Source: a virus (taxonomy: Duplodnaviria > Heunggongvirae > Uroviricota > Caudoviricetes). Taken from it: DNA of 64,000 nt. The position numbers and the translations under genes were made by a program. The notes beneath the pieces were generated by a model. That model was given only the letters and a program-made list of their open reading frames with translations, did not search any database and had not been told where the DNA came from. The stretch lies in the IMG/VR virus record IMGVR_UViG_3300035703_000003; one strand, 5' to 3'. The first letter of the stretch is position 1, and each line of letters starts with the position of its first letter. Below are positions 12,464-64,000 of the stretch, piece by piece.

Positions 12464-13040
12464 ATTTATTTAACCTGTACGCCATTGGGTGATTATGATG
12501 ATATCTGTGCCAGCCTTCGCCTGGTGCAATAATATTCATAAATGGAACATCTAAAGGCTTGCCATCCTTATGCGCTAACCAATTAAGTAAACCGAATCCG
12601 ATCCACGAAAGCACAAATGGCATAACAACAAAAATTATGAAAAAATCAATACCTAACAACAGCATAGCAGCAGCATATGTGAAATGGATGTGTTTTCTAT
12701 ATCTATGAAAGAATACTACCCGTGGGTTCTTTAGTAAGTCCACAATATATTTTTTAGGAATATATTCTACATGCCATCTGCTAGTGATAACACGCCATAT
12801 GCCCACGTATACGGGGCTGTGTGGGTCGTCTACGGTATCTGACTTTGCATGATGCATACGATGTACTGCAGCCCATGTAAGGGCACTACGCCCGCCGCAT
12901 ATTGTTCCAAAGAATAGCATAACATACTCTAAGAATACACTTGTCTTAAAACTGCGATGAGTAAAGTATCGATGGTATCCTATGCTGATACCAATGAGTG
13001 CTGCAAAGTAATAAAATAGATAACCGTGAAGTAATATCAT
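12405..13040 (-). CDS. Membrane fatty acid desaturase
   Basis: HRYFTH, HRMHH, DPHSP, GEGWHRYHH. Confidence 0.9.
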   Translation of the reverse strand: MILLHGYLFYYFAALIGISIGYHRYFTHRSFKTSVFLEYVMLFFGTICGGRSALTWAAVHRMHHAKSDTVDDPHSPVYVGIWRVITSRWHVEYIPKKYIVDLLKNPRVVFFHRYRKHIHFTYAAAMLLLGIDFFIIFVVMPFVLSWIGFGLLNWLAHKDGKPLDVPFMNIIAPGEGWHRYHHNHPMAYRLNKFDIAGWTIERVFIKSKPSG

Positions 13041-13930
13041 ACTGCCATTACTGCCTTTATACTCTCCATTGGGGCATAGTTGATAAGTTTATAATCGCTT
13101 GTTTTCGTAGCAAGTAATTCGTTGATGTTATTAAATGCAGGCATTAACAAGTGTGGCAACGCCATTGGAGTTCTAGTAAGTTGTTCAGTTACTTGTTCAA
13201 AATGATTTAAGTAAACGTGACAATCTCCGCCAGACCATATAAAGTCACCCACTGTAAGTTCGCAAATTTGTGCAATCATGTGTGTGAGTAGGCTGTAACT
13301 TGCGATGTTAAACGGAACACCTAAGAACATGTCTGCACTACGTTGATATAGTTGACAGCTTAGTTTATTGTCAATGACCCTAAACTGTGCGAATGCATGA
13401 CACGGAGGCAGTGCCATTTCAGATAATTGGTTAGGGTTCCATGCTGATAAGATAAGTCGTCTTGAGTCTGGATTAGTTCTAATTTCGTGGATAAGCCATT
13501 TGAGTTGGTCTGTTCCTTCGACGTAGTTGAAATCGTCCTTAGCGAGGTTCGGTCCATCAAAGCTACGCCATTGTCTTCCGTAGACGGGACCAAGTTCTTT
13601 ATGGGTATCAGTATTGATGTATCCCAGAGCCCTGCCTTGTGCATCAGCATTGGCTGTCCAAATAGTAGATCTTCCTGCCAGCTCTGATCTCGGCTTTTCG
13701 AAAGTAATTTCTGCCAATCTTCTTTCATCTGTTGATCCTTCTAAGAACCATAGTAGTTCTCCTACTACAGCACGCCACGCTAGTTTTTTAGTTGTTACTG
13801 CAGGAAAACCTTCGTTAAGATCAAAACGCATTTGGTATCCGAAGACACTACGAGTTCCTACACCTGTTCTGTCAGAAACAGTTTTTCCGTAAGTCATAAC
13901 ATGTTCTAGTGCATCATGATACTGTTTCAT
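13037..13930 (-). CDS. thyA: Thymidylate synthase
   Basis: DRTGVGT, ELLWFL, PDSRR, LPPCH, YQRSAD, PFNIASY. Confidence 0.97.
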   Translation of the reverse strand: MKQYHDALEHVMTYGKTVSDRTGVGTRSVFGYQMRFDLNEGFPAVTTKKLAWRAVVGELLWFLEGSTDERRLAEITFEKPRSELAGRSTIWTANADAQGRALGYINTDTHKELGPVYGRQWRSFDGPNLAKDDFNYVEGTDQLKWLIHEIRTNPDSRRLILSAWNPNQLSEMALPPCHAFAQFRVIDNKLSCQLYQRSADMFLGVPFNIASYSLLTHMIAQICELTVGDFIWSGGDCHVYLNHFEQVTEQLTRTPMALPHLLMPAFNNINELLATKTSDYKLINYAPMESIKAVMAV

Positions 13931-14400
13931 TTTCTTGCCCACTTTTCAATATATAAATCGCTGTCGGTCTCTTCTGCGTCATATAAGTTAAACTTATCCA
14001 TAATCAAGTCTGCAGGAAGGAATGTATCGCAGTCGTAGATGCATTGGATTCGACTTAGATAAAATTCGTCGATAATATCCAAACAATGCTCGATAAGTTG
14101 TGCGCCGCCTATGATCCACACATCTTTATGAAACTTTATTTGTGGTAGTATTTTGTAAAAGCTACGCATGTCTACTACTACGTCTGGGCCTTTTATAAGA
14201 CCAGAAGTAACAACGATGTTTTCTCTATTAGGCAAAGGTTTAACGGGCAAACTTTCCCAAGTTTTTCTGCCCATTACTATAGTTGAGTTGTTAGTGTGTT
14301 GCTTGAACCATTTAAGGTCTGCTGAATTGTGTGGCCAAGGAAGGGCACCGTTTTTACCGATGCCCCATTCCTGGTCACAAGCTAGTATCGCTTTGATCAT
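13927..14400 (-). CDS. folA: Dihydrofolate reductase
   Basis: GIGKNGALPW, MGRKTWES, LPNRENIV, IIGGAQ. Confidence 0.96.
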   Translation of the reverse strand: MIKAILACDQEWGIGKNGALPWPHNSADLKWFKQHTNNSTIVMGRKTWESLPVKPLPNRENIVVTSGLIKGPDVVVDMRSFYKILPQIKFHKDVWIIGGAQLIEHCLDIIDEFYLSRIQCIYDCDTFLPADLIMDKFNLYDAEETDSDLYIEKWARK

Positions 14401-26845: not shown

Positions 26846-27214
26846 TTATGATTGGTTGTGATATGCATCTACACGATAAATTTTATCATTACGGATACTT
26901 AAAACATCAATAACGCTAAAGTTTAGATTTGCACTTTCGCTTTTAATAATAATATGGCAGTATGCACGATTTGCATGACTTGTACCGATATCAATCACTG
27001 TTGCATTAATATCTGGCACATCTTTCCAAATATTTTCGTTTGCAATTAGAACAGCATCGACACCTGTTGCCTTTGTATTCCAGTCAACTAATTTTACGTC
27101 GGGATCAAATAGATCAAATAATTTTTTACTTGACTGTAAATTCCATGCTTCGAAGTATTGATGTGCAATAGTATGTATGTCAGAGTTAATCATTACCATC
27201 CAATCCTTTCCCAC
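26846..27214 (-). CDS. NTF2/SnoaL-like protein
   Basis: YFEAWN...LF..DV...DW...G...VIDV....KI. Confidence 0.7.
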   Translation of the reverse strand: MGKDWMVMINSDIHTIAHQYFEAWNLQSSKKLFDLFDPDVKLVDWNTKATGVDAVLIANENIWKDVPDINATVIDIGTSHANRAYCHIIIKSESANLNFSVIDVLSIRNDKIYRVDAYHNQS

Positions 27215-28290
27215 GGAACATTTTTATCACCAAAATGACCATAAACGCAATTTTTACTATAATCATAAAAATTAAATAAATCAAAACGATCAATGATACC
27301 TTTTGGACTTAGATCAATCTCGTTGCGAATAAAACGTTCGATTGAACGATTATGGCCGTTACTATCGATTAGAATACTGGTCGGTTGTTTAACACCAATA
27401 GCATATGATAGCTGAATGTTGCACCAATCTGCCATTTCATCTGCTACTACGTTTTTAGCAAGCCAACGTGCCATATATGCAGCACTACGATCTACTTTTG
27501 TTGGATCTTTGCCGCTAAATGCGCCGCCGCCGTGCGGAGCAAAACCGCCATACGTATCTACGATAATTTTACGCCCTGTAACACCAGCATCGCCATCGGG
27601 GCCGCCAATTACAAAGTTACCTGTAGGATTAAGATGCCATACTGTATTTTCGTCAATCAAATCTCCCAATACATTGTGTGCAGCTTTTTTTGCTAGTTCA
27701 CGTGCTTCGTCGATGCTGCCTTCGGTGTGTTGTGTGCTAATAACAATTTGGTCAATTCGTTTAATGATGCCTTCTCTTCTGGCGCCATTGTATTCAACAC
27801 TTACTTGCGATTTTGCATCGGGGCCCAATACAGTATTATTTTTTCTAAATTGCTCGAGTTCTTGTAAAATTTTATGAGAAAAATGAATTGGTGCTGGCAT
27901 ATAACTGCTGGTATGATTACACGCATAGCCAAACATAATGCCTTGGTCACCCGCACCGAAACTATCTGTGCCTAATGCAATATCTGCACTTTGCGAGTGT
28001 ATTTTATTGTAAATGTTTAATTTATTCCAGTGAAAGCCGTCTTGTTCGTAACCAATATCTTTAACAACATTACGAACTATATTGTCTATTTCTTCTGTAG
28101 ACACATTGAAATTTTTCACTTCGCCTGCAAGTGTAACATGATTTGTAGTTACAAGTGTTTCGATTGCAACACGAGTAGTCTGATCTCCTGCGGTAAGACC
28201 AGCATCAACAAGTGCATCAGAAATCTGATCTGCAACTTTATCAGGGTGTCCTTTACTTACACTTTCACTAGTGAAAATATAATTAGCCAT
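27193..28290 (-). CDS. metK: S-adenosylmethionine synthetase
   Basis: FTSESVSKGHPDK, GAGDQG, GRKIIVDTYGG, GGAFSGKDPTKVDRS. Confidence 0.97.
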   Translation of the reverse strand: MANYIFTSESVSKGHPDKVADQISDALVDAGLTAGDQTTRVAIETLVTTNHVTLAGEVKNFNVSTEEIDNIVRNVVKDIGYEQDGFHWNKLNIYNKIHSQSADIALGTDSFGAGDQGIMFGYACNHTSSYMPAPIHFSHKILQELEQFRKNNTVLGPDAKSQVSVEYNGARREGIIKRIDQIVISTQHTEGSIDEARELAKKAAHNVLGDLIDENTVWHLNPTGNFVIGGPDGDAGVTGRKIIVDTYGGFAPHGGGAFSGKDPTKVDRSAAYMARWLAKNVVADEMADWCNIQLSYAIGVKQPTSILIDSNGHNRSIERFIRNEIDLSPKGIIDRFDLFNFYDYSKNCVYGHFGDKNVPWERIGW

Positions 28291-29678: not shown

Positions 29679-29898
29679 TATTATTTCCTAGCTTTACGTT
29701 TAATACGAAATTTTCAACTAACATTTTAACAAGACTTGCCTTTAATGTCAAGACATCATCTGGCAGTTCAATAACATGAGCTGCCATCATTCGGTATGCA
29801 TTGCGTTCATCTATATTTAGGTAATCCCAATCTATCGGATCGGATATTTCAGTTTCTTGTGCTAATTCCGCTAACAAATTTATACTGATTGGTTTCAT
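29653..29898 (-). CDS. Hypothetical protein
   Basis: Coupled ORF; DPIDW, LVENFVLN. Confidence 0.6.
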   Translation of the reverse strand: MKPISINLLAELAQETEISDPIDWDYLNIDERNAYRMMAAHVIELPDDVLTLKASLVKMLVENFVLNVKLGNNNESSSKSK

Positions 29899-30458
29899 CT
29901 AGGCTCCCAGTGGTCAATACAGCGTGGCTCATACATACCCATACTACCTACCAAGACACGATCACCTTCTGCATTAATTCTGTATGTTTTAGTAGCGTCT
30001 CTGCCACATGTTGTGCAGCTTGCTACTAGCTTTTGAACACAATCAGCCAATCCCATAAGCTGACTTGTAGTTTCAAACGGAGTTCCTCTACTGTCTTGGT
30101 CTAGTCCTGTTGCAATAACATTTACTCCATTGCTTAACCATAGTTCTACTCTTTTAAGTGTAGGATAAGTTGGCATAAATTGTACCTCATCTAAACATAT
30201 AGTATCGAAGTTATACGGCATGATGTTATATTTAGAATCAACTTCACTGAACTCTGTAAAACTAATACACGGATAGCTTAGTTGATTATGTGTAACAATC
30301 TTTTCTTCAGCGTAACGATTATCTTTTGATGGCTTTAGCACCAATACTTTCTTTTGTTGATGATCTAGCCAAAGAACTCTTTTTAATAGTTGACTAGTTT
30401 TGCCTGCATACATCGGCCCCGCATATACATCTAACGTTCCTCTTTTTACCATTCCCAT
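29895..30458 (-). CDS. tdk: Thymidine kinase
   Basis: GPMYAGKT, DEVQF, GLD.D....PF, CxxC, YEPRC. Confidence 0.95.
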   Translation of the reverse strand: MGMVKRGTLDVYAGPMYAGKTSQLLKRVLWLDHQQKKVLVLKPSKDNRYAEEKIVTHNQLSYPCISFTEFSEVDSKYNIMPYNFDTICLDEVQFMPTYPTLKRVELWLSNGVNVIATGLDQDSRGTPFETTSQLMGLADCVQKLVASCTTCGRDATKTYRINAEGDRVLVGSMGMYEPRCIDHWEPR

Positions 30459-48276: not shown

Positions 48277-48543
48277 TCATTTGTCACTCGCTCCAAAGAA
48301 GAAGTTAATAATTGTTGACACTGCGGTACCTAATAAAAATCCTAAAATAATATTAGCAAAATTTACACCGTCTGGTGGTAGTGGAAAGAAAGTAACGCAA
48401 AAGAAATATATTACACTTACTATTCCCCAAAACCAAGCGAACCAATATGTAAAATGTGATGCTAATTTATCACCACGTCTTACTAGTTCTTCGTGTGCAT
48501 CTCGCAAACTGTTGTCTGTTGTGTCCATATTATCGTCTGACAT
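48277..48543 (-). CDS. Two-TM membrane protein, candidate holin
   Basis: Two hydrophobic helices; ATG overlaps the endolysin stop. Confidence 0.55.
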   Translation of the reverse strand: MSDDNMDTTDNSLRDAHEELVRRGDKLASHFTYWFAWFWGIVSVIYFFCVTFFPLPPDGVNFANIILGFLLGTAVSTIINFFFGASDK

Positions 48544-49415
48544 TATTTGATACCCATTGCTGCTAGTGTTTTTGGTCCTGCTACGCCGTCTGCTGTAAGA
48601 CCTTTGCTTGCTTGCCATTTTTTAAGTGCTGCTTCTGTGCCTGGACCAAAGTCACCATCGGCACCTACACCTAATACTGCCTGCATTTTCTTAACTAAGT
48701 CGCCTTTGCTGCCTTTCTTAAGTGTTGCTGTTGCTGCACTTTCACTTGCAGATTCTGCTACTGGCTTAAGTGTTACTTTACCACCGAACACTTCCATTGC
48801 TTTTTTATAACGTGATTGACGATCTGCTAACCCGATGTCACCGCCGTTGATGATTTTAGTCATCTTAACAACATCGCCTGTATCAGCAACATCATTCAGT
48901 TTCTTTGCGTTCCAGAACCAGCAAGCTGATTCAATTGCGCCTTTTTCTGTTGCAACATATTCTGCAGCTTGTTCTGCGGTCATATTAACACTCTTACCAA
49001 AGTTAGTGTAGTTCTCACGACCAGTAAGTTGTTTTAGACCACGACCACGGAATCTCCATCCGTCACCCTCTTTTACGTTACCCATCTTTGATGTGCGGAA
49101 TTCGTCCATGTAAACATAGTTTGCAATCTTTTCTGGATTCTTTGCATACTCGGCAGCATTACGCTTTCCTGCGCCAAAGTAACGTGGAAAAATCTTTAGT
49201 AGAGTTTCTTCTCTATAGTTCAAGTTTTCTTCTAGCGTCATAAAGTTTCCGCTTTCATGAGCGCATTGTGCGATAAAGCCAGCAACTCTTGCTTCTGTTA
49301 CGATATCATATTTCGGAAGAATGTCTGCAAGTGCATCGTACCACTCTTCGACTTTTTTATTTCCTGGTATTAATGCTGCTAAATGCTCTTTAGTAAAATT
49401 AAATTTAAATGCCAT
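48543..49415 (-). CDS. Endolysin: GH19 domain plus PG_binding_1 domain
   Basis: FIAQCAHES, EENLNY, FRGRG.KQLTG..NY, INGG..G..DR; LKKGSKG...DG.FGP.T..A...WQ...L..DG.AGP.T. Confidence 0.93.
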   Translation of the reverse strand: MAFKFNFTKEHLAALIPGNKKVEEWYDALADILPKYDIVTEARVAGFIAQCAHESGNFMTLEENLNYREETLLKIFPRYFGAGKRNAAEYAKNPEKIANYVYMDEFRTSKMGNVKEGDGWRFRGRGLKQLTGRENYTNFGKSVNMTAEQAAEYVATEKGAIESACWFWNAKKLNDVADTGDVVKMTKIINGGDIGLADRQSRYKKAMEVFGGKVTLKPVAESASESAATATLKKGSKGDLVKKMQAVLGVGADGDFGPGTEAALKKWQASKGLTADGVAGPKTLAAMGIK

Positions 49416-50227: not shown

Positions 50228-52768
50228 TCACTCCATTACATAAACACGATAAGCGTCTTGTGACTTAGCCCATTTTGCGGCAGCTTTTTTCGCATCTGCA
50301 AAGCTACCTTGGAATTTAAATATCTCATCATCATCTGGCATGCCGTATTCACGTGTTGTAAACATCCACAGTGCAGAGTATCCAGGATCACGTGGTTTAC
50401 GACCATGCGATCTCATATGACGTGAGTAGTCTAATGTAACTGCTTCTTTTACTCTATCTTTTTTATCGTCTTTTTTATCAGCATTTTTTTGACTTTGCTC
50501 AATGCTTTTACGAATAATGTCTTGCGCTCGTGCCATTGCTCTTGCGTTGTGTCCTGACTTGGCTTTTGCTTCGGTTGAATTCCATTTGAGTCCACTGCTA
50601 GTAAAGACCCCTTCGTTACCGTCTTCACCGTCAATGACTTTTAATCCAATTGGATCTACTCCGTTTTTCTTAGCCATATCGATAAACTTTTGTTGCAACG
50701 GGTTGCCTGTTACATTTGCGCCGAAGTAATCATTCCATTGGTCTACTAATTTACCATCAACATATAGTTCTAGCATTGCAAAGTCTTCGCTGTAGTCGTA
50801 CCATTGCTTCATATAGGTACCTTCTTCAGCTTCGTCAAGTTCGACTTCTTCGTTTGCAAACACATATTCTTTACTAGCAATTCTTCTTTTTATTTCTTTT
50901 TCTGCTGATCTGTCGTGCTTGGCTACCTTCATTAACTTGTTGTGCGACCAGTTTTTAGCAGTAGCCGATTTATCAGATCTCCAATCAGCTTTTGTATCTG
51001 TCAGATTCTTACCGTAATATTCATCGTCGGCTGCTTTGCGACGCTTTGCATGGTCGCTGCTTTCTGCTACACCTTGATTTGAAGTTTTGCACTTAGGGCA
51101 AAAGCCGTTGTTCTTTTCCCATGCTTTAGCAGTTGATACTTCGTCGCACTTGACACAAGCAATTTTTTCTACGGCTTCGTTAAATGTTGATTCTTCTAAT
51201 TTAGAAATGTCGCCTTTTAGTAAGTCAAACTCTCTAGCAGCATCTGCAGCACCTTTGCCTGTGCGTTTCATCCATGCTTTTGCTTTTCTAATTGCGACTT
51301 GGCGCTTTTGTTCTGCACGGTTAACGGCTGCACCTAGTGTAGCTTTGTCTTCTTTCATATCACGAGTATTCTTCATACCGCTGTAGTCATTGTCCAGCTC
51401 TTTGAATTCTTCGTATGAAAGATACATATCAGTGTCACGGTCATAATATGAGCCTTCCTTTGGATCGTAGTAAACAACTTTACCACTTAGTGTCATGAAC
51501 GGACCTTCTAGGCCAGGAATTTCGTCATAACGTTCTTTATCAATGCTCTTTATTGTTTTATAACCTTCTTTTTGGACACTTTCGAATCCACGGGTGCTGC
51601 CATCCATTACACCAGGAGTTGGTGACATTTCACGACGGCCAACATTTGACGCTGGTCGTCTTTGTGGTCTTATACTAGTTGTTGGTGCAAGGTTTGAGCC
51701 TGCAGCGGGTGTGTTTGATTTTGTAAGGTTGTCAGGTCTTGCTTTCGGACCTGGTATATCTGTCATAAACTTGGCCCCTGCGCCCGGCTCTACTGCACCG
51801 CTTGGCCATTCATAGCCGCCGCCCGGTAAACTTCTGCCAGGTCTTGCAACCGGGCGTATACTAGTTTTTGGTGCTTCTTCTGTTGCTGCCATTGGTCTAG
51901 GCATTGGTCTCGCACTTGCTGCAGGTGCATTTGATTTTCTGTTAGCCATATTAGTTCCTACTCTTGTTCCTATTTGTGATCCAATTGATCCGCCGATCAT
52001 TCCGCCTACTGGACCTGCAATTGCGCTGCCTGCCATACGTCCAATTTGACCGCCTACCATAGATCCTACCATTCCTGGTCTTTGATTAGGCATTCCAGTT
52101 GACGATGCTGCTGTGGATTTTCTGATAACTGATGGATTCATTGTAGGAGTAGGAGCTTCTGACATCACAGTAGTAATCATTTGTGTAGTGTCTAGTGTAG
52201 GACCTTCGTTTAACTGTGACCACCCTGTAACATTAAATGTATCGTTTTCAAAGATAGTTAGCATACGAAGTCTATCTTTGTCGTTTGCAGTTAGATTGGG
52301 ATATGATTCAACAACTTGCTTCCAATCAGCAATGTGTGCTATTTCTTTAACAGCACTTTCTGATAAGTTACGCTTATTGTAGTATAAATTACTTTGTTCT
52401 TTAGCAACGCTTTCGCTTATTTGATTTTTTACAACAATATTGCTTACCATTTTAGCTTCAGAAACTTTTTTGTATTCGTCGAGAGCGGGCTTGAATCTTT
52501 TTAGAGTATTTTCATACTCTGCTAGCATACGATTGCTTTCTATAACATAAAGTTTGTTATTATCTTTGTATAAGTTAAGATATTCTAAAATACTGTTGTG
52601 CCAGTATGTTCTTGCAGTGTTCCATTTAATAAGACCATGTGCATAACATTCAAAAATGCTATACATATGTGCAGCTACTTTATGATAATCTCTGCCACTT
52701 TCTAAGTATAAAGCTCTGGACTTTTTACTTTCTTTTATAATTTCGTATGCTAATTCTAACTTTTTCAT
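50228..52768 (-). CDS. Large mosaic protein, putative protease-processed head/internal polyprotein
   Basis: 846 aa; Gly-zipper, Pro-rich and CxxC..CxxC segments separated by LNE, FNE, VAE, LDE, VKE; upstream ATAAATA. Confidence 0.65.
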   Translation of the reverse strand: MKKLELAYEIIKESKKSRALYLESGRDYHKVAAHMYSIFECYAHGLIKWNTARTYWHNSILEYLNLYKDNNKLYVIESNRMLAEYENTLKRFKPALDEYKKVSEAKMVSNIVVKNQISESVAKEQSNLYYNKRNLSESAVKEIAHIADWKQVVESYPNLTANDKDRLRMLTIFENDTFNVTGWSQLNEGPTLDTTQMITTVMSEAPTPTMNPSVIRKSTAASSTGMPNQRPGMVGSMVGGQIGRMAGSAIAGPVGGMIGGSIGSQIGTRVGTNMANRKSNAPAASARPMPRPMAATEEAPKTSIRPVARPGRSLPGGGYEWPSGAVEPGAGAKFMTDIPGPKARPDNLTKSNTPAAGSNLAPTTSIRPQRRPASNVGRREMSPTPGVMDGSTRGFESVQKEGYKTIKSIDKERYDEIPGLEGPFMTLSGKVVYYDPKEGSYYDRDTDMYLSYEEFKELDNDYSGMKNTRDMKEDKATLGAAVNRAEQKRQVAIRKAKAWMKRTGKGAADAAREFDLLKGDISKLEESTFNEAVEKIACVKCDEVSTAKAWEKNNGFCPKCKTSNQGVAESSDHAKRRKAADDEYYGKNLTDTKADWRSDKSATAKNWSHNKLMKVAKHDRSAEKEIKRRIASKEYVFANEEVELDEAEEGTYMKQWYDYSEDFAMLELYVDGKLVDQWNDYFGANVTGNPLQQKFIDMAKKNGVDPIGLKVIDGEDGNEGVFTSSGLKWNSTEAKAKSGHNARAMARAQDIIRKSIEQSQKNADKKDDKKDRVKEAVTLDYSRHMRSHGRKPRDPGYSALWMFTTREYGMPDDDEIFKFQGSFADAKKAAAKWAKSQDAYRVYVME

Positions 52769-56124: not shown

Positions 56125-57201
56125 ATGAAAATAGCTATAATGTTAACCGGGCTTTTAATAGATAAGGTTGACACCCTGCCACATATTAAAAAAATGTTTG
56201 ATTACATAGCGGCAAAGAATAATTTAGCAATTGATTATTATTGCCACTTTTGGGCTCCGGAAAACATGTATCCATACCATATCGACTATCATGCAACAAA
56301 AATTGCTGTTCCGTGGGAAAATCAAGGTAGTATAAATCACGCAATAGATATTTTTAAACCAATAAGTTATAAGGTAAGCAAATATTCAGAGATATTGCCG
56401 TATTTTGAAAATTATACAATTAGCTTATCAAAACATGACAAATGGCTAAACGAGGCGTTTAGTGATGCAGAGATGTTTGTCAATCACAACATACACAAAA
56501 GATTCTTTGTAGATAATTTTGAAGACCCCATTACTATATTCAACAAATGGTGGACTTATCATATTAACTGGTGTCAGTTTATTCATTATACTGCTCAGGT
56601 ATACAGTGTAAGTGAATTGATGAAAATAGTATCATCTAGCAACACAGATTATGATGCTGTTATAAAATGGAGATTTGATGTACTGTTCGATTATAAAAGT
56701 TTCGAATCGATGATAGTTGATCTCATTCGTAATATTAAGGATGATAATGCATTATATACAGAACTCGCTTGGGAGGGAATACAATGGACAGCCGATCTGA
56801 GATCGGATATTAATAATGTCGATAATAAACTAATAAGCCTACACGATGGCTGGTGGATAACAAACAAAGAAGTTAATAAAATCATGGCTAATAATTATCT
56901 CAACTGTTATATGTCGGACATGTGTAACACAGTAGGAAAAGAAGCTGGAACACACACATGGCATTATAACGGCGTAGTTAAGTGTGGTCTATATATTAAA
57001 TTAATTGGTAGAATAAATCATACAATCATAAGATTTCCTGCTAAAATACCACACGACTGGCACGAAAATACATCTAGTTATTATCCTCACTTATGGAATT
57101 CGCAATTTATCGCCAAAAAAGATAGTGATTTTAAAATGTCTTTACAATATTGGGACAAACGATCTCAATATTATACTATAAAACATTTTGATTTTTATTA
57201 A
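56125..57201 (+). CDS. Putative glycosyltransferase-like protein
   Basis: MKIAI.LTG, DYYCHFW, YDAVIKWRFD; paralog of 57176..58054. Confidence 0.55.
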   Translation: MKIAIMLTGLLIDKVDTLPHIKKMFDYIAAKNNLAIDYYCHFWAPENMYPYHIDYHATKIAVPWENQGSINHAIDIFKPISYKVSKYSEILPYFENYTISLSKHDKWLNEAFSDAEMFVNHNIHKRFFVDNFEDPITIFNKWWTYHINWCQFIHYTAQVYSVSELMKIVSSSNTDYDAVIKWRFDVLFDYKSFESMIVDLIRNIKDDNALYTELAWEGIQWTADLRSDINNVDNKLISLHDGWWITNKEVNKIMANNYLNCYMSDMCNTVGKEAGTHTWHYNGVVKCGLYIKLIGRINHTIIRFPAKIPHDWHENTSSYYPHLWNSQFIAKKDSDFKMSLQYWDKRSQYYTIKHFDFY

Positions 57202-58054
57202 AATTTTCATAATCTTCTTTTAGTAACTTAAAAGTCATTTGACTCATATCGTGGTTATTCCTTAACACTGTTGAATCAAACGCAGTAGGCCATGTTACCG
57301 AAAAACTTAACCAGTTAGTTTTACTATACGCACTTGTTTTCATCCATACCCAGTGTTGTAATATTGATTTGTAGTCTCCGACTTTTAAATCATAAAACAA
57401 TGGTTTGTGCTCTGTTACCAACTTAAAACAATGTTCTTTAAGATTTTTGCTATAGTTATACCAAGGCGTCGGTAAAGAAATAAAGCAAAAATCTCCGATG
57501 TGTGGAGTTCCGCTTTCAATGTATAACCATGGTGCCATTACTTTATCTCTAAACACTGGATTTCTGTGCATATTACTAAATGCTGCTAGCCATTCAGATT
57601 CTGAAATGTTATTTAATATAGTATCACTCCGGGTTCGCAAGACAACATCGTACATACCTTCTAAATTACCGGTCATTGAGGTCATGCCGTTGATAGCTAA
57701 GTATTGTCCGAAAAAATTAAAGCTATAGTCTGATATATGAGCTTCGTTAGTTTCAAATAAAATACTATGCCTTACGTTGTCAGGAATAAGATCTAAGTAA
57801 CGATTATCCTTAACATTATACGCTTTTACATTTCTGATAAACTCAGTCATAACGCTTTTGTAATCAGCGACATGATAACGAACAGGAGCGTATGTGTTTT
57901 CGATACGTTGTTTTAGATTCGGAGAACCGTCGTCCCAAAAATAGCAATAATAATCAACCTTTATATTATTATTTGCAAATACTTTATTTTTATACCACCA
58001 AGAGCCTTCTTCTAAGAATCTCGGTTGACCAGTGACTAGTATTGCTACCCGCAT
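57176..58054 (-). CDS. Putative glycosyltransferase-like protein
   Basis: MRVAILVTGQPR, DYYCYFW, YDVVLRTRSD. Confidence 0.6.
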   Translation of the reverse strand: MRVAILVTGQPRFLEEGSWWYKNKVFANNNIKVDYYCYFWDDGSPNLKQRIENTYAPVRYHVADYKSVMTEFIRNVKAYNVKDNRYLDLIPDNVRHSILFETNEAHISDYSFNFFGQYLAINGMTSMTGNLEGMYDVVLRTRSDTILNNISESEWLAAFSNMHRNPVFRDKVMAPWLYIESGTPHIGDFCFISLPTPWYNYSKNLKEHCFKLVTEHKPLFYDLKVGDYKSILQHWVWMKTSAYSKTNWLSFSVTWPTAFDSTVLRNNHDMSQMTFKLLKEDYENFNKNQNVL

Positions 58055-58062
58055 ATAACCTC

Positions 58063-59253
58063 TTAATTTAACGGCAATTCGGGATTCGGTGTTGTGAAGT
58101 TCTTTTTACGCATTACTGTTTTAGCAACTAAGTCTAGCACTTGACTGTGTGAATCCCAATTTAACACAAAAGGAACGTTAATATCAGAACGCATGTCCTT
58201 GATAACAGCTTGTGCATCAGGACCCATTTGTGCAATCTTTTTACCATAATTAATATACGTGTCTTTGAATAAAATTGCAAGTTCTTTTATTGTGATTTGT
58301 TTCATGTTTCTTTCATCGTTAACACGGTCAAGGAAGTGACGTGTAAATTCTACGTCAATGCCTAACTTTCTAAACAGTTGGTCTAGATACTTTTCTAGTG
58401 TGTCTAACTGAACTTGTGTAATTTGCGGATTGTCTTCTTCATTTATGCCGTATTTGCTTACATATAGTTTTTCTAATTCACGTGGACTTAATCCAGCTGC
58501 GAAACTGTTTGCGATACGGAATGCATAATCACCTAACGAATGTCTTTCGCCCTTGCTTTTTACAAGTCTATGCATTGCTTCTAGTGCTGCATTGATTAGT
58601 TTTTCTTTTGCTTTTACGTTATATTCTTCTCTGTTCATTTCGCTTACATCTCTCACTGTTCTGATGCTACCATCATGGTTTACGAAATATGCTGAAAATT
58701 TCACATTAGGATATTCTTGTTGTAGTTTGTTAAACACTTTCAAGTTAGTCATACTATCGTCATACATTCTAACACGACCGTATTTTCCCGTATCCAAATA
58801 ACGTCTTACAAAAACAGCTTTTTTCTCTGCAGGTATTGCATTACTTCTAATATTACCCGCTCTATGCACATGTATTAAGTCTATATTAATACCATGTTGT
58901 CTAAATGTATCTAGGAAAAGATCTTTGTCATCGAAATCTTCTCTTGCAGTTAACATAATAACTTTACTATCGCCTGCGTTCTGCAATATAGCATTTAGTT
59001 TTGCTATCATTGGTTTCATAGGCTCGCTTTCTTTATTAAACTTCTCTGCATTTCTGAATTCGCCAAAGTCAAACTCTTCGCCGGGCTGCAATTCATAATT
59101 GTTGAATTGTTGATTGTCTAATGTTTTTACTACATTACCATCCTTTACTACTTTTATCTTAGCAGTAGTATGGAATAATGTATCATCAATATCAAATATG
59201 GTTAATCCTAAGTTAGAATCACCATAAGCCTCGAAAAGTTCTTTTAATCTCAT
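58063..59253 (-). CDS. Tagged mosaic protein: HAD phosphatase plus C-terminal putative nuclease-like module
   Basis: MRLKELFE; FDIDDTL, LTAR, K, YDDS; FTRHFLDRVNDERN after INE. Confidence 0.75.
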   Translation of the reverse strand: MRLKELFEAYGDSNLGLTIFDIDDTLFHTTAKIKVVKDGNVVKTLDNQQFNNYELQPGEEFDFGEFRNAEKFNKESEPMKPMIAKLNAILQNAGDSKVIMLTAREDFDDKDLFLDTFRQHGINIDLIHVHRAGNIRSNAIPAEKKAVFVRRYLDTGKYGRVRMYDDSMTNLKVFNKLQQEYPNVKFSAYFVNHDGSIRTVRDVSEMNREEYNVKAKEKLINAALEAMHRLVKSKGERHSLGDYAFRIANSFAAGLSPRELEKLYVSKYGINEEDNPQITQVQLDTLEKYLDQLFRKLGIDVEFTRHFLDRVNDERNMKQITIKELAILFKDTYINYGKKIAQMGPDAQAVIKDMRSDINVPFVLNWDSHSQVLDLVAKTVMRKKNFTTPNPELPLN

Positions 59254-59266
59254 TTATCTAAATCCT

Positions 59267-60166
59267 TTAACGGCGTGTTGTGTTTGATGGCGGTGTCAAC
59301 GGTCTAGATGTGCCGCCAGGTCTTGCGGCTTGACCTGGACCTGCTACTGTTCCGCTTGGATTGAATCTCGGAGTTCCGGGTAATGGATTTGGATTTATTG
59401 TTCCCCCAGGTCTTGCGGCTTGACCTGGACCTGCTACTGTTCCGCTTGGATTGAATCTCGGAGTTCCGGGTAATGGATTTGGATTTATTGTTCCCCCAGG
59501 TCTTGCGGCTTGACCTGGACCTGCTACTGTTCCGCTTGGATTGAATCGTGTAGGTGGTACATTACTGCTAGCTGGTGGTCTTGCTGCGTCTAAGCCATCT
59601 TGATAACCACGTCTACGTTGTAATTCTGTGTTGCCGTCTCCTCGCCCGCCTGTTGCTGGACTAGCTGCTGGCATACTACCCTGGGCGCCAACTGTTGGTC
59701 TTGCTCCGCCTTGCGCTCTGTTTAACGCAGACATAGTTTGATCACCGGCAATTCCGTCTACTTGTAAACCAAAATCTGTTTGAAATTGTTTAACCGCGGC
59801 GGCAGTTCTTGGACCAAATTTTCCATCTGCTCCGGTGTCTCCAAGATCATAACCTTTGTCTATCAACATTTGTTGAAGGCCGCTTACATCAGAACCAGAC
59901 GAGCCACGTCTTAGATTTGAAGTAGTTGTCCCAGGAGCTCGTACACCTGTGGGTGCTCCACTAGTCGATTGATCAGGTCTAGTTGGTTGTCCCCGAGTTA
60001 TAGGCCCGCTAACTTCTTGGCCTGGTCTAGCTGGTAATCCTCTGAATACAGGCCCGCCAGGTCTTGCACTTTGTCCTGGTCCAGCCACTGTTCCGTCGGG
60101 ATTAAAATTCGGAGTTCCCCTGCCGGCAGGTAATGCTGGTCTTTCAAATAAATCTTTCAATCTCAT
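59267..60166 (-). CDS. Tagged Pro/Gly-rich protein with PG_binding_1 domain
   Basis: MRLKDLFE; LRRGSSG.DV..LQ..L...GY.....DG.FGP.T..AVK.FQ...GL.VDGIAG..T. Confidence 0.82.
   Translation of the reverse strand: MRLKDLFERPALPAGRGTPNFNPDGTVAGPGQSARPGGPVFRGLPARPGQEVSGPITRGQPTRPDQSTSGAPTGVRAPGTTTSNLRRGSSGSDVSGLQQMLIDKGYDLGDTGADGKFGPRTAAAVKQFQTDFGLQVDGIAGDQTMSALNRAQGGARPTVGAQGSMPAASPATGGRGDGNTELQRRRGYQDGLDAARPPASSNVPPTRFNPSGTVAGPGQAARPGGTINPNPLPGTPRFNPSGTVAGPGQAARPGGTINPNPLPGTPRFNPSGTVAGPGQAARPGGTSRPLTPPSNTTRR
59316..59547. repeat. 90 bp tandem repeat, about 2.6 copies (30 aa unit)
   Basis: ccaggtcttgcggcttgacc at 59316, 59406 and 59496. Confidence 0.92.
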
Positions 60167-60402
60167 TTTGTTTTTTTCTCCCGGACCAGATCGTCCTTGT
60201 ATTCTTCTATGTAGTATTCTAGTGATTTATCACCACTACATATTTCAAAGTTTTCATTATTTATTGTTTTGCCTCTTATAAGATTTTTAGTTTTTTTGTC
60301 AATACTCTTAACATGTATTACCATGTCCTTATCCTGATGCTTATAATAAATTATATGCTGCGGATTAAAGTATCTCCAAATCTTTTTAAAAAACAATTTC
60401 AT
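60163..60402 (-). CDS. Small hypothetical protein
   Basis: ATGA-coupled on both sides. Confidence 0.6.
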   Translation of the reverse strand: MKLFFKKIWRYFNPQHIIYYKHQDKDMVIHVKSIDKKTKNLIRGKTINNENFEICSGDKSLEYYIEEYKDDLVREKKTK

Positions 60403-61811
60403 TTCTCACGACCTGCTTTCATATTAGCAAGCCAGTGTGCCATACGCTGCTTTTCGCCTGAACTATTTTTAGCTGTTTTTCGCAAATCACTAACACTGGC
60501 TTTGGTATTTACACCCATACGCTTTGCCAGACCTTTGCGCCCTGGATTTTTACCATCTGCAAAGTTTTCATTTGTTTTTTCTACAGGGAAATATGCTTTA
60601 ATAGTTTTACCCATACGTTGCGCTGCGGCTGCACGATGGTTGCCATCAATTACACTGTACTTACCGTCACTAAACTGTGGTCCTACAATAATTGGTGCGC
60701 TTAGGTCAACACGATGACTGTAGTCGATATCTACAATACGATCAAATGGATCATCATAGTCGAAGAATTCTTCCTCACTTGGGAACATGTCTGGGGTAAA
60801 GTTTCCAAGTTGCCAATCATGAGCTAAGATGAACCGATCCATGTCTTTGTTCATACCAGCATCGTGATGCATACCTCTGAAGATTTTCAGCATTTCTTTG
60901 CCAGATTCTTCAGCTAATCCTTCTCTAGCCGCCGCTGCTTTTTCATCACTAGTATCGCCGGTAACCTTGTATGTTTTACCGTTTACACTAAATTCTTTTT
61001 TACCTGCTTTGATAGCATTCATACGTGCATCAGTAAATGGGTTTGATTCGTTAATATTGTCTGATAATAGATTAACAATTTTAGGCAATAGAGACTGATT
61101 CCTTGTAGCTTCTGGCAAGTCGCTATCTTTCATTGGTCTAATGCCTTTTATTTTTACATGCTCATTCTTTTCAAAACGTTTAATAAACTTCTCAACGGGC
61201 AATGGGCCGTCATAGTCAATTAATGTGTTTCCAAGTTTAACTGCAGCGTGATCTGCGTTGCCACGATCATTAATAAGAACCACTATATCTCCACCGTGTA
61301 TTTTTTGTAATGCTTGTGCTACTAATACACATCCACCATCAAACGGACCACAATCTTCGGGTTCTAAAATGTCATAAATGTTTTCTTTTGCTTCATTAGT
61401 AAGATCATGTGCAACCTTAAGTGCTGCTGGACCTTGTGGATGTCTTGGATTGATACTAACAACATCGCCGTTCATAAGATCACTGACGCTGGCACTCTTG
61501 CCTATTTTGTCTAACAGTTGATGTAACTTATCCTCAGGATCATAACCGTTTGTCTCGTATCCTAGTTTACCACGCACTTCAGTTCGCTTGCCTGTTTGTT
61601 TGTTTAAAATATGTAGGACTAGCATACCTGCACGGTTGTCACGCTCCAGTTGTAACATGTAACTATTGCCACTGCTTTCTTTAAGATAAGGTAAACTGAA
61701 CCACAGCTTAAACCAATCGTCTGTTCCTGGCTTTACTTTCTTTTCACGCTCGATGTCACGCAAACGCTTGCTTGTATGACTAATATTTTCTGATATTTCG
61801 TTTATTTTCAT
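60399..61811 (-). CDS. Tagged mosaic protein with Cys-His-Asp and ParB/Srx-like modules
   Basis: MKINEISE; GGC..HA..ID; PIIV...VIDGNHR. Confidence 0.72.
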   Translation of the reverse strand: MKINEISENISHTSKRLRDIEREKKVKPGTDDWFKLWFSLPYLKESSGNSYMLQLERDNRAGMLVLHILNKQTGKRTEVRGKLGYETNGYDPEDKLHQLLDKIGKSASVSDLMNGDVVSINPRHPQGPAALKVAHDLTNEAKENIYDILEPEDCGPFDGGCVLVAQALQKIHGGDIVVLINDRGNADHAAVKLGNTLIDYDGPLPVEKFIKRFEKNEHVKIKGIRPMKDSDLPEATRNQSLLPKIVNLLSDNINESNPFTDARMNAIKAGKKEFSVNGKTYKVTGDTSDEKAAAAREGLAEESGKEMLKIFRGMHHDAGMNKDMDRFILAHDWQLGNFTPDMFPSEEEFFDYDDPFDRIVDIDYSHRVDLSAPIIVGPQFSDGKYSVIDGNHRAAAAQRMGKTIKAYFPVEKTNENFADGKNPGRKGLAKRMGVNTKASVSDLRKTAKNSSGEKQRMAHWLANMKAGREK

Positions 61812-62173
61812 TTCGCCAGACCTAAGTTAAACAATGTATTTGTTGTGCTAGTATTTAACAGTTTTGGCTTGCCGTCGCCTCCGAAAAACTTTTTAGCTTG
61901 ACGCTCAGTTTCACCGGGCTTAACATCGACTGTAGTATTAACACCAGGAACAATTTTACCATCTTCATCTACACGCTTGCCACGCTTACCGTAAGCACCG
62001 CCTGCATACCACTCACACCATCCGTTTGGGTCTATGTTACCTGCAACTGCACTACATTTGTTAGGATCTCTCCACATTGTGCAGTTAATACATTTTTGTC
62101 CGTTCTTAGGATCAGGCTGATAACCTGCTTCAGCCTTAGACCCTTTCCCTTCAAATAGCTCATGTATTCTCAT
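61808..62173 (-). CDS. Tagged protein with HiPIP (high-potential iron-sulfur) domain
   Basis: MRIHELFE; YQ..PK.GQKCINC......C..V.G.I.P.GWC..Y. Confidence 0.82.
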   Translation of the reverse strand: MRIHELFEGKGSKAEAGYQPDPKNGQKCINCTMWRDPNKCSAVAGNIDPNGWCEWYAGGAYGKRGKRVDEDGKIVPGVNTTVDVKPGETERQAKKFFGGDGKPKLLNTSTTNTLFNLGLAK

Positions 62174-63366
62174 CTTGGTCCTACTCCCATTGCCGTTGGC
62201 GGTGTTCCAGTTGATGGTTTAGGTTTAGGAGGAGTGATAGGCTTTGGTGCAGACTTGGGGGGAGTTAATCCGGTCCCTGTTCTATCTTGTGCGCCCATCG
62301 GTGTTGGACTTCCTGACCCTGTAGTTAGTTTAGGTATATTAGTCGGAGTAGTTGGGGCCACTCTCGGTGTTGGACTAACAGGTCTAGTAGGTAAACTTAC
62401 GTTGTTAAAGATTTCTCGCATAGCACTTAATGTTTGCACGCCTGCTATACCATCAACTTGTAGACCGTAATCTTGTTGAAACTTTCTTACCGCTGCAGTT
62501 GTATTCCCGCCATAACGACCGTCGACTCCCTGATCGCCTACAGTATATCCTAATGTTGTAAGACCTTTTTGTAAAGTTTTAACACTGTCTAATGGAACAC
62601 CTTCTGCTCTGTAATCTCTTTTAAGATTTATTGCTCCACTAGGACCTGGCAACTTACTAACATCAATTTTAGGGATAACTTTAGGTGGTATAACGTTTAC
62701 TCTAGCAGGAATACTTGTAAATGGATTTGGAACGGCATTCGGGGGAGTTAACTTGGGACGTTCTAAGTTCGGTGCGGACATAGTAGACACTGTTGTTCTA
62801 AACGCAGATGGTGATGTATAATTTGGCCCAGCTGTAGTTAATGCTCTATCTAATGTATTATATCCTGCTGATAAGTTTGCATATCCATCTGCACTGTAAT
62901 TAGGATCAGTGCGACGCCATCTAATATAGTTGTCTCCTAATACTTCTGCTGCAGTGTTAGGGTCAATATCAGGATTTCCTAAAAATTCGGTTGCAGTTCT
63001 ACGATATGACGGCTCGTTTTCCATTTCATATCTAACAAACTTTGCTTGTGCATCTAATGTTTCTTGTCCGGGTATAAGATTTCCGCTATTATCTATCCGG
63101 CCTTGGTCGTTCATAAATCTCATAAATGAATCATGACGTGGTCCTTGCCAGCTAATCATACCTGCATTGCTAGCACGATTGTATGGATCTGTATGCGTTC
63201 CATACAAATATCTGTCTTGAAAACTATTTTCTCTATTAACCTCTGCAGTAAGAGCTCTTGCTTGAGCATCACTAAATCCTGCATTAGTAAATGCATTATA
63301 AACGCCCAATGCGTTTGCTTCACGACTAGTTAATTCTCCTGCTTCGAACAGTTCTTTTAATCTCAT
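62170..63366 (-). CDS. Tagged protein: phage-tail-lysozyme-like domain plus PG_binding_1
   Basis: MRLKELFE; GFS..QA.AL.....RENS...G...W.G.R...Q..F...E; VDG.YG..T..AVR.FQ...GL.VDGIAG..T. Confidence 0.78.
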   Translation of the reverse strand: MRLKELFEAGELTSREANALGVYNAFTNAGFSDAQARALTAEVNRENSFQDRYLYGTHTDPYNRASNAGMISWQGPRHDSFMRFMNDQGRIDNSGNLIPGQETLDAQAKFVRYEMENEPSYRRTATEFLGNPDIDPNTAAEVLGDNYIRWRRTDPNYSADGYANLSAGYNTLDRALTTAGPNYTSPSAFRTTVSTMSAPNLERPKLTPPNAVPNPFTSIPARVNVIPPKVIPKIDVSKLPGPSGAINLKRDYRAEGVPLDSVKTLQKGLTTLGYTVGDQGVDGRYGGNTTAAVRKFQQDYGLQVDGIAGVQTLSAMREIFNNVSLPTRPVSPTPRVAPTTPTNIPKLTTGSGSPTPMGAQDRTGTGLTPPKSAPKPITPPKPKPSTGTPPTAMGVGPR

Positions 63367-63370
63367 TTTA

Positions 63371-64000
63371 TTATCCTGCTAGTATAGTTAATAGTTGTAG
63401 TATTGCTTCTGGATGCATCGATTGTCTTGGTGTAGCTAACAGTTGAATTTCTGTTCGCATTTTGTCTGCGTCTTCTGGACTTACTCCACGGCTTTCTAGT
63501 TTGTCGATAAGATTGTTAATTTTATTTAAATCAATCGGGAGTGGTGGTTGCTCTTGTTCTCCTGCTTCTGTTGCAAAGGATCTTAATTTTCTTGCTATTT
63601 TAGGGTCTCTTAGTAATCTTAACGCTTTTACTCCTAGTTGGCCGACACGGCCATCGCTTATTCCCAATACATTTGCTATTTGTGTATTTGTCATAGGATT
63701 ATTAAATGGTTCAATTCCAAACTGTGCTTTAAGTATTAGTGCGTATCGGCGTGGTAATTGATCTATTGCTGCATGTATTTCTTTTGTTAGTTCTTCACGA
63801 TTTACTGTATCGAATTGGTCAGCATCATAGCTACCGGTGGGGAAATCAACTTGTGTGCCTTTAACAGTAATGTCTCTTTTACTAATACTTTTACTGTTAG
63901 GCACTCTGCCCCCGATAGTAGTGTTGCGGTATGTTTCGCTGTCTGGATTGTATAACGCCATTACCTGCTTATCACTAAATGTTTCTGATAAATCTCTTAG
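63371..64000 (-). CDS. Tagged protein with sigma70 region 4 HTH domain; 5'-truncated
   Basis: Frame is open to the window end (LRDLSETFSDKQV before the listed Met); LP.R...IL...FGI.....T..QIA..LGIS..RV.QL..KALR.LR. Confidence 0.78.
   Translation of the reverse strand, partial: LRDLSETFSDKQVMALYNPDSETYRNTTIGGRVPNSKSISKRDITVKGTQVDFPTGSYDADQFDTVNREELTKEIHAAIDQLPRRYALILKAQFGIEPFNNPMTNTQIANVLGISDGRVGQLGVKALRLLRDPKIARKLRSFATEAGEQEQPPLPIDLNKINNLIDKLESRGVSPEDADKMRTEIQLLATPRQSMHPEAILQLLTILAG

Follow-up and report, generated by a model that had tools for sequence, protein, structure and literature searches.

The prohead protease gp21 of phage T4 cuts C-terminal to Glu at L/I-X-E sites (PMC9026906), and its homologues in giant phages cut after (S/A/G)-X-E (PMC5694885, PMC10052503). 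In T4, a 10-residue capsid-targeting sequence (CTS) takes internal proteins into the prohead and is then removed by gp21; foreign, unrelated proteins that carry the CTS enter heads as well (PMC3012670, PMC9026906). An Asp at P1 prevents the processing of the T4 CTS (PMC9026906). For polyvalent proteins, an embedded zincin peptidase has been proposed as the processor (PMC5512222). Here we analyse P0001, the product of an open reading frame at 60399-61811 (-) in a stretch of 64,000 nucleotides from a Caudoviricetes virus (IMG/VR record IMGVR_UViG_3300035703_000003), which we refer to as the window. An original prediction from the letters of the window had described P0001 as a six-module polyprotein whose boundaries fall on Glu sites. 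Our analysis points, with a probability of roughly 60%, to a capsid-loaded, prohead-protease-processed multi-effector polyprotein.

Module layout of P0001 and its relatives

P0001 is encoded by a single intact open frame of 470 residues. It consists of a leader, a 37-residue N-terminal module, four cargo modules and a basic C-terminal module, which together cover all 470 residues (window positions given here are on the minus strand). The leader MKINEISE (residues 1-8, 61788-61811) is a candidate capsid-targeting propeptide with the end I-S-E. The N-terminal module (residues 9-45, 61677-61787) has two helices, contains DDWFKLWFSLPYLKE and ends in Y-L-K-E↓S, where the arrow marks the module edge. 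Module 2 (residues 46-140, 61392-61676) is an alpha+beta domain ending in L-T-N-E↓A, and module 3 (residues 141-255, 61047-61391) is a candidate small papain/transglutaminase-like Cys-His-Asp domain ending in N-I-N-E↓S. Module 4 (residues 256-301, 60909-61046), a 46-residue helix-hairpin-helix mini-module, ends in G-L-A-E↓E, and the putatively ParB/Srx-like module 5 (residues 302-415, 60567-60908) ends in K-T-N-E↓N. The basic module 6 (residues 416-470, 60402-60566) forms the C-terminus and reads NFADGK...HWLANMKAGREK. All motifs of the original prediction are found in P0001: ISE8, PGTDDWFKLWF with LKE45, TNE140, GGC..H..D with INE255, LAE301, DGNHR with TNE415, and NFADGKNPGRKG.

The edges of the modules were set without reference to Glu, as the points where similarity to 244 relatives starts or stops. 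In local BLASTP comparisons with the best 120 relatives, the similarity breaks at query positions 44-51, 140-141, 252-256, 296-301 and 414-415, and the similarity-defined edges of P0001 coincide with the predicted boundary residues E8, E45, E140, E255, E301 and E415. P0001 contains 12 [LIVTAFYM]xE sites, and for the five internal edges all to fall within ±1 residue of one of them, the chance probability is ~1e-6. Motif matches off the edges are INE5 in the leader as well as ILE150 and LPE234 inside the papain-like module. Searched against Pfam, P0001 gave no family at E≤0.1. Sequence-profile searches of the PDB with modules 2, 3 and 5 returned nothing below E 0.3, and Foldseek found no match at E≤1e-3 for either of two models described below, that of module 3 and that of the whole protein.

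In module 3, the sequence GPFDGGC is invariant, as are C161, H188 and D199. Modelled alone, the module reaches a predicted local distance difference test score (pLDDT) of 91.8, with the Cys opening helix 21-32 and the His located in strand 46-53 (module numbering). Its best structure matches are nearly all papain-fold Cys enzymes, at weak scores (Z≤4.7; SseI 4.7, AvrPphB 3.9, protein glutaminase 3.8), and further weak matches comprise Pasteurella toxin C3, vasohibin, deubiquitinases and NlpC/P60. Foldseek found nothing significant with this model. The papain-like assignment made in the original prediction fits the invariant Cys-His-Asp set and the weak papain-fold matches.

Module 5 has an invariant DGNHR sequence (61 sequences). 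In the structure comparison (VIA), its top 11 matches all belong to the ParB superfamily, with Z scores of just 3.7-5.4, and include PadC, Noc, ParB, SerK, SbnI and KorB; the match to PadC has a Z of 5.4 and a root-mean-square deviation of 3.3 over 78 aligned residues. Sequence support is weak and comprises a PHROG ParB match (E 0.006) and precomputed PF02195 assignments on the relatives P0053, P0072 and P0092. When module 5 was scanned alone (P0001 and 60 relatives), no Pfam match was obtained at E≤0.01. The predicted ParB/Srx-like character agrees with the invariant DGNHR and the eleven top structure matches.

In module 2, 21 residues are invariant, and many of these carry a charge. Pfam and the PDB yielded no relative, and in the ESM Atlas the module matches only an unnamed, stand-alone viral cluster of 97 residues (TM score 0.73). 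Module 6 has 55 residues, an isoelectric point of 11.1 and 14 Lys/Arg against 4 Asp/Glu; searched against Pfam, it gives spurious OAR-motif matches alone and no meaningful family.

P0001 has more than 2,100 relatives in a word-indexed search, and an exhaustive HMMER search retrieved 2,501 metagenomic cluster representatives at E≤1e-3. When P0001 was compared by tblastn with 50,697 records of cultured and deposited phages, nothing matched. In many relatives the similarity spans merely 20-50% of the query, yet at 80-95% identity. For the architecture counts that follow, each module was searched separately against 244 retrieved relatives, which show ~100 module architectures. The leader and residues 9-45 are almost always N-terminal; the N-terminal module is matched in 79 of the relatives and occupies the N-terminal position in 64 of these. 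Module 6 (171 matches) is almost always the last module, with one further module of ~134 residues sometimes behind it. Modules 2-5 occur in any combination and order with unrelated inserts between them (e.g., tag-m3-X-m2-m4-m5-m6, tag-m3-X-m4-m5-X-m2-m6 and m5-m2-m6). Module 2 is the commonest (180 matches), module 3 is matched just 44 times, and module 4 (46 matches) moves independently. Inserts with a Pfam name are a GNAT acetyltransferase, a Zeta-toxin/AAA_33 kinase-like domain, DUF6934 and DUF5661. The modules thus do not keep a fixed order, which the original prediction had named as a refuting result, and the polyprotein reading withstands this check. From phage to phage the neighbours of a module change, and the reading frame runs on through foreign domains, as expected from the proposal that new effectors are gained by in-frame insertion.

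A Glu motif at the module junctions

The junctions share the motif (T/L/V/F/Y/I)-x-E↓(A/S/N/G). We counted, over distinct contexts, how often a Glu lies within ±2 residues of the C-terminal edge of a module; 30% is expected from composition. Glu is found in 43 of 44 contexts (98%) for the N-terminal tag junction, in all 61 contexts (100%) for module 2 and in 66 of 67 (99%) for module 5. A logo of 195 junctions, anchored on this Glu as P1, has T/L/V/F/Y/I/M at P3 in 173 (89%), N/K/T/S at P2 and A/S/N/G at P1' in 141 (72%).

An unbiased test was based on an all-against-all BLAST of the family in which the modules of P0001 were not used. The motif, defined as hydrophobic/Thr-x-Glu ending within two residues, is present at 45.5% of 734 distinct similarity breakpoints and at 11.0% of random positions. 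As controls, Asp, Lys and Gln at P1 were not enriched at breakpoints.

These data bear on the reading that P0001 is an uncut multi-domain polyvalent protein, which loses its leader at most and works, once ejected, as a single polypeptide. On this view, the x-x-E junctions would be flexible acidic linker ends, either inherited with the modules or favoured by recombination. Polyvalent proteins of 2-15 domains are common in phages, and some are packaged unprocessed, such as the virion RNA polymerase of N4 (PMC5512222). Furthermore, all prohead-protease cuts identified in SPN3US, self-cleavage excepted, yield N-terminal propeptides (PMC10052503). An inherited linker is, however, at odds with a motif that is retained while the flanking tail residues diverge; module 2 alone ends in LTNE, AYNE, ITSE, ITTE, LMKE or LTTE. 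The specificity for Glu over the unenriched Asp, Lys and Gln also argues against simple acidic linkers, as do the P3 and P1' preferences, which are those of Glu-specific prohead proteases. In addition, a junction of 3-4 residues is too short for driving homologous recombination. We therefore consider an uncut P0001 unlikely, although it is the most probable of the alternatives to a processed polyprotein.

A second modular candidate polyprotein is encoded at 50228-52768 (-) in the window. This protein has 846 residues and starts with MKKLELAYEIIKE. Compared with 110 relatives, its breakpoints are at ~204, 297, 473, 526-531, 569, 646-649 and 775, each at a hydrophobic-x-E site. Some of its relatives add LysM and transglycosylase domains.

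The 846-residue protein is also informative about the source of the presumed proteolytic activity. The papain-like module 3 could in principle process P0001 in cis or in trans, much as polyvalent proteins have been suggested to be processed by their zincin (MPTase) domain. The papain-like fold of module 3 and its invariant Cys-His-Asp set would suit such a role, and autoprocessing peptidases are a known theme (PMC5512222). The 846-residue neighbour has the same junctions without module 3, however, and we rejected self-cleavage by module 3 as a general mechanism since the motif is general and module 3 is matched only in the 44 instances given above. Of all the explanations considered, self-processing is to us the least credible.

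Leader, candidate protease and neighbouring genes

P0001 sits in a run of co-oriented genes with overlapping stop and start codons. Most genes of the run share an opening octapeptide, which is MRLKELFE (twice), MRLKDLFE, MRIHELFE, MRINELFE or, in P0001, MKINEISE, and they are otherwise unrelated to one another. Across the family, the start follows M-[KR]-[ILFV]-x-[ED]-[ILFV], and MKINEIITE also occurs. In the T4 record NC_000866, gp24 starts with MAKINELLRE and Alt with MELITELFDE; judged by sequence, the leaders of the window and the family closely resemble these two starts. P0001 thus begins with a short propeptide-like segment, MKINEISE↓N, as do its neighbours (MRLKELFE↓A and similar).

The tagged genes overlap at ATGA and have no clear Shine-Dalgarno sites, and their first codons could therefore be under constraint at the nucleotide level. 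Accordingly, the octapeptide might reflect translational coupling, mRNA signals or some other kind of sorting, with P0001 and the other tagged proteins acting inside the infected cell rather than being carried in the virion. Against this stand the resemblance of the leader to T4 head-protein propeptides and its conservation as amino acids across very divergent relatives that have other codons and other neighbours. We regard such a non-virion role as very improbable, though somewhat less so than self-processing.

The DNA polymerase encoded in the window shares 43-48% identity with its counterparts in Rak2/CBB/Phosso-type jumbo myophages (T4 superfamily), which identifies the phage, at the level of sequence, as a Rak2/CBB-like jumbo myovirus. 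P0001 is recorded on a JGI contig of 313,079 bp. Two large relatives in IMG/VR, G001 (381,886 bp, 100% complete according to CheckV) and G002 (299,582 bp), have one copy of module 6 each. Both encode a prohead protease of the T4 gp21 family (Peptidase_S77, E ~1e-26, above the curated cut-off), and next to the protease gene lie those for a coiled-coil scaffold similar to gp22 and for a major capsid protein of the gp23 family (E 7e-100). In G001, the gene for the scaffold is located between the protease and capsid genes, and a syntenic cluster of leader-bearing genes adjoins the DNA polymerase gene. Upstream of its conserved GVQPM block, the G001 capsid protein itself contains ...RKYLAE↓SATAG... 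within the N-terminal propeptide region. In T4 gp23, a cut after FLTE65 in the equivalent region removes a propeptide of 65 residues (PMC5694885).

Cleavage by a prohead protease would not by itself make P0001 a source of effectors. P0001 could instead be mainly a core- or scaffold-like assembly protein whose cleavage clears the head, with some fragments, such as the basic tail, staying behind. The T4 core proteins to which it may be likened (gp22, gp67 and gp68) are multiply cut at L/I-X-E and mostly leave the head (PMC9026906), and modules 2 and 6 are near-universal in the family and bear no enzyme signature. On the other hand, modules 3 (Cys-His-Asp) and 5 (DGNHR) have invariant residues of a catalytic type, and the GNAT and Zeta-toxin-like kinase domains inserted in relatives do not suit a scaffold either. 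Conflict effectors, and not scaffolds, typically show such rapid shuffling of enzyme domains, and G001 has its separate gp22-like scaffold gene. This role for P0001 is therefore improbable in our view, ranking between the uncut protein and the non-virion role.

We favour the processed, capsid-loaded polyprotein, for which the following mechanism can be proposed. P0001 would be produced from an operon of late, virion-destined proteins that carry the leader M-(K/R)-(I/L)-x-(E/D)-(I/L/F)-x-E. The leader, perhaps together with residues 9-45, would bring the precursor into the core of the assembling prohead. There, the gp21-type serine prohead protease (S77) would cut after Glu in exposed (T/L/V/I/F/Y)-x-E↓(A/S/N/G) linkers, removing the leader and freeing the modules from one another. 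The predicted products are an alpha+beta domain, a papain-like Cys-His-Asp enzyme, the 46-residue mini-domain, a ParB/Srx-like probable nuclease/NTPase and the very basic 55-residue tail, which may remain with the DNA. The pieces would be ejected together with the phage DNA and take effect at an early stage of infection. With a standard protease site at every junction, function would survive the in-frame insertion, deletion or permutation of modules, and this tolerance would explain the extreme mosaicism of the family.

Several points weigh against this mechanism. We infer packaging into the capsid, cleavage, ejection and the functions of the modules for P0001 from sequence, and the S77 protease of its own phage is likewise predicted from G001 and G002. 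Where giant phages have been characterised, almost all cuts by the prohead protease trim off N-terminal propeptides instead of separating mature domains (PMC10052503). Glu is near only 58% of the ends of module 3 and 53% of the ends of module 4, values that may be lower partly because module tails are replaced and the assigned boundaries slip. P3 at the junctions is often Thr/Val, compared with Leu/Ile in T4. The T4 late promoter TATAAATA was not found in the window. A peptidoglycan hydrolase, an unusual cargo for a myovirus head, is among the leader-tagged proteins: the gene at 62170-63366 (-) in the same operon encodes a lysozyme and peptidoglycan-binding protein (Pfam Phage_lysozyme2 and PG_binding_1) with the leader MRLKELFE. 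The structure models, for their part, lend weak support to an exposed position of the sites. All six Glu sites fall within the nine segments of pLDDT<50 in the AlphaFold model of P0001 (predicted template modelling score, pTM, 0.38), a result that is partly circular because the rows of the input alignment are themselves cut at module edges. This alignment consisted of collinear multi-module rows; alignments of single-module fragments, which MAFFT had misaligned, were discarded. The ESM Atlas model likewise resembles beads on a string (pTM 0.31).

The remaining tagged genes lie on both sides of P0001. Directly upstream, the gene at 61808-62173 (-), whose stop overlaps the start of P0001, encodes a protein of 121 residues with the leader MRIHELFE and a HiPIP-like domain (Pfam HIPIP PF01355, E 3.4e-5). 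The leader is placed directly before this HiPIP-like [4Fe-4S] domain, and the protein has no export signal. In G001, the HiPIP domain is not a separate protein as in the window; it is the first module of a multi-module protein of 484 residues, which also carries a module starting with DGRIVRGVNTTVDV after ...MNE↓. Further upstream, the gene at 63371-64000 (-) runs off the end of the window and encodes essentially sigma-70 region 4 (Pfam Sigma70_r4, E 2.2e-7). It probably carries the cargo leader, since the frame is open upstream to ...LRDLSE, and the protein may be an injected sigma mimic. A second protein of the peptidoglycan hydrolase type, which is chitinase/GH19-like with PG_binding_1, is encoded at 48543-49415 (-) without a leader; it is more likely to be the endolysin than the Phage_lysozyme2 protein.

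Downstream, a candidate open reading frame of 79 residues without a leader (60163-60402 (-)) separates P0001 from the next tagged gene. Its start overlaps the stop of P0001, and it gave no family match. Two tagged genes follow at 58063-60166 (-), one with the leader MRLKDLFE, peptidoglycan binding and Pro-rich repeats, the other with MRLKELFE and an HAD/PNK-phosphatase-like domain. A 90-bp tandem repeat (2.7 copies, 98% matches) at 59309-59547 (-), inside the open reading frame 59267-60166, encodes the RFNPSGTVAGPGQAARPGGTINPNPLPGTP repeats at the C-terminus of the tagged peptidoglycan-binding protein. The tagged cluster is interrupted at 56125-58054 by two convergent untagged genes (358 and 292 residues, both strands). 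Their N-termini are weakly alike (MKIAIMLTG... and MRVAILVTG..., both with ...DYYC.FW), they gave no Pfam match, and they lie in a patch of low guanine-plus-cytosine content (0.33 compared with ~0.40). The pair is possibly an inserted cassette.

Elsewhere in the window, the N-terminal sequences alone of three gene products resemble S-adenosylmethionine synthetase (MetK; 27193-28290 (-)), thymidylate synthase plus dihydrofolate reductase (13037-14400 (-)) and thymidine kinase (29895-30458 (-)). Such genes are typical of the auxiliary metabolism of jumbo phages. In G001, a protein of 344 residues (L082:2016-3050 (-)) is encoded directly upstream of the prohead protease gene (208 residues, L082:1372-1998). 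Its first two thirds are extremely acidic, with long Asp/Glu runs, its C-terminus is Lys-rich, and it is possibly a prohead core protein.

Comparison with known systems

The relatives of P0001 suggest a wider picture, in which a widespread clade of uncultured jumbo phages would use a standardised cargo grammar, the capsid maturation protease would double as polyprotein processor and effectors would be swappable. The grammar would run from a CTS-like leader and an N-terminal adaptor through effector domains in any number, with a (T/L/V)-x-E protease site closing each, to a basic C-terminal peptide. We put this generalisation forward tentatively, its chances falling a little short of even. If it is true, it describes a delivery system for multiple proteins that is natural and evolvable and comes from a DNA phage. 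Should the junctions be cut, the simple grammar of leader, junction and tail could be reused to load phage heads with more than one protein, and the quick diversification of the injected arsenals of giant phages would be explained. The family also offers several hundred small, uncharacterised domains with natural boundaries as candidates for functions in early host takeover or anti-defence.

The proposed design has a formal parallel in the polyproteins of positive-strand RNA viruses (picorna-like viruses and potyvirids; PMC9249622), which share with P0001 the single translation product, the standard junction sites and the in-frame gain of modules. Those proteases and viruses are unrelated, and they process replication machinery, whereas P0001 would be accessory cargo cut inside the prohead of a DNA phage. 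Our literature searches turned up no account of polyproteins with such junction sites in DNA phages.

Closer in kind are the ejection and inner-body proteins of phiKZ-like phages (201phi2-1, phiKZ and SPN3US; PMC5694885, PMC10052503). These phages also have a gp21-related Glu-specific protease, many head-internal proteins and some substrates with several cut sites. Their cuts, however, remove and fragment long N-terminal propeptides, and the release of several mature domains from one precursor is not described there. They also differ from the phage of P0001 in lineage and in P3 preference.

The internal proteins of T4 and its Alt protein, with their CTS and gp21 (Mullaney and Black; reviewed in PMC9026906, PMC3012670), resemble P0001 in having a short leader with a terminal hydrophobic-x-Glu, shared by cargo that is otherwise unrelated. 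The setting is similar as well, namely a phage of the T4 superfamily with a gp21-type protease and a gp23-type capsid (here in relatives) and hypervariable cargo genes. In contrast, each T4 cargo protein is a single unit that is cut once (Alt is trimmed at both termini), whereas members of the P0001 family have four to many cargo modules per presumed precursor, each bounded by a candidate site, as well as the conserved 37-residue N-terminal and the basic C-terminal modules. If the junctions are cut, the T4 paradigm of one leader and one cargo is widened to a polyprotein through which a single gene delivers several independent proteins.

With the polyvalent proteins (Iyer et al. 2017, PMC5512222), P0001 shares the mosaic of unrelated effector-type domains, including candidate ParB/Srx-like and peptidase-like domains and peptidoglycan-related ones, the predicted packaging and delivery with the DNA, and a proposed processing into units. 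P0001 differs in that it has no embedded zincin MPTase, MuF or N4-RNA polymerase anchor (it gives no Pfam match, and HExxH is absent from its sequence), that it would be processed in trans by the capsid maturation protease, at a junction motif of standard form, and that its modules are small (46-115 residues) and mostly from unnamed families. The proposed mechanism, if true, would provide a concrete means of processing for polyvalent proteins without an internal peptidase. The processed-polyprotein model thus joins the CTS-tagged internal proteins of T4 with the polyvalent proteins and differs from both.

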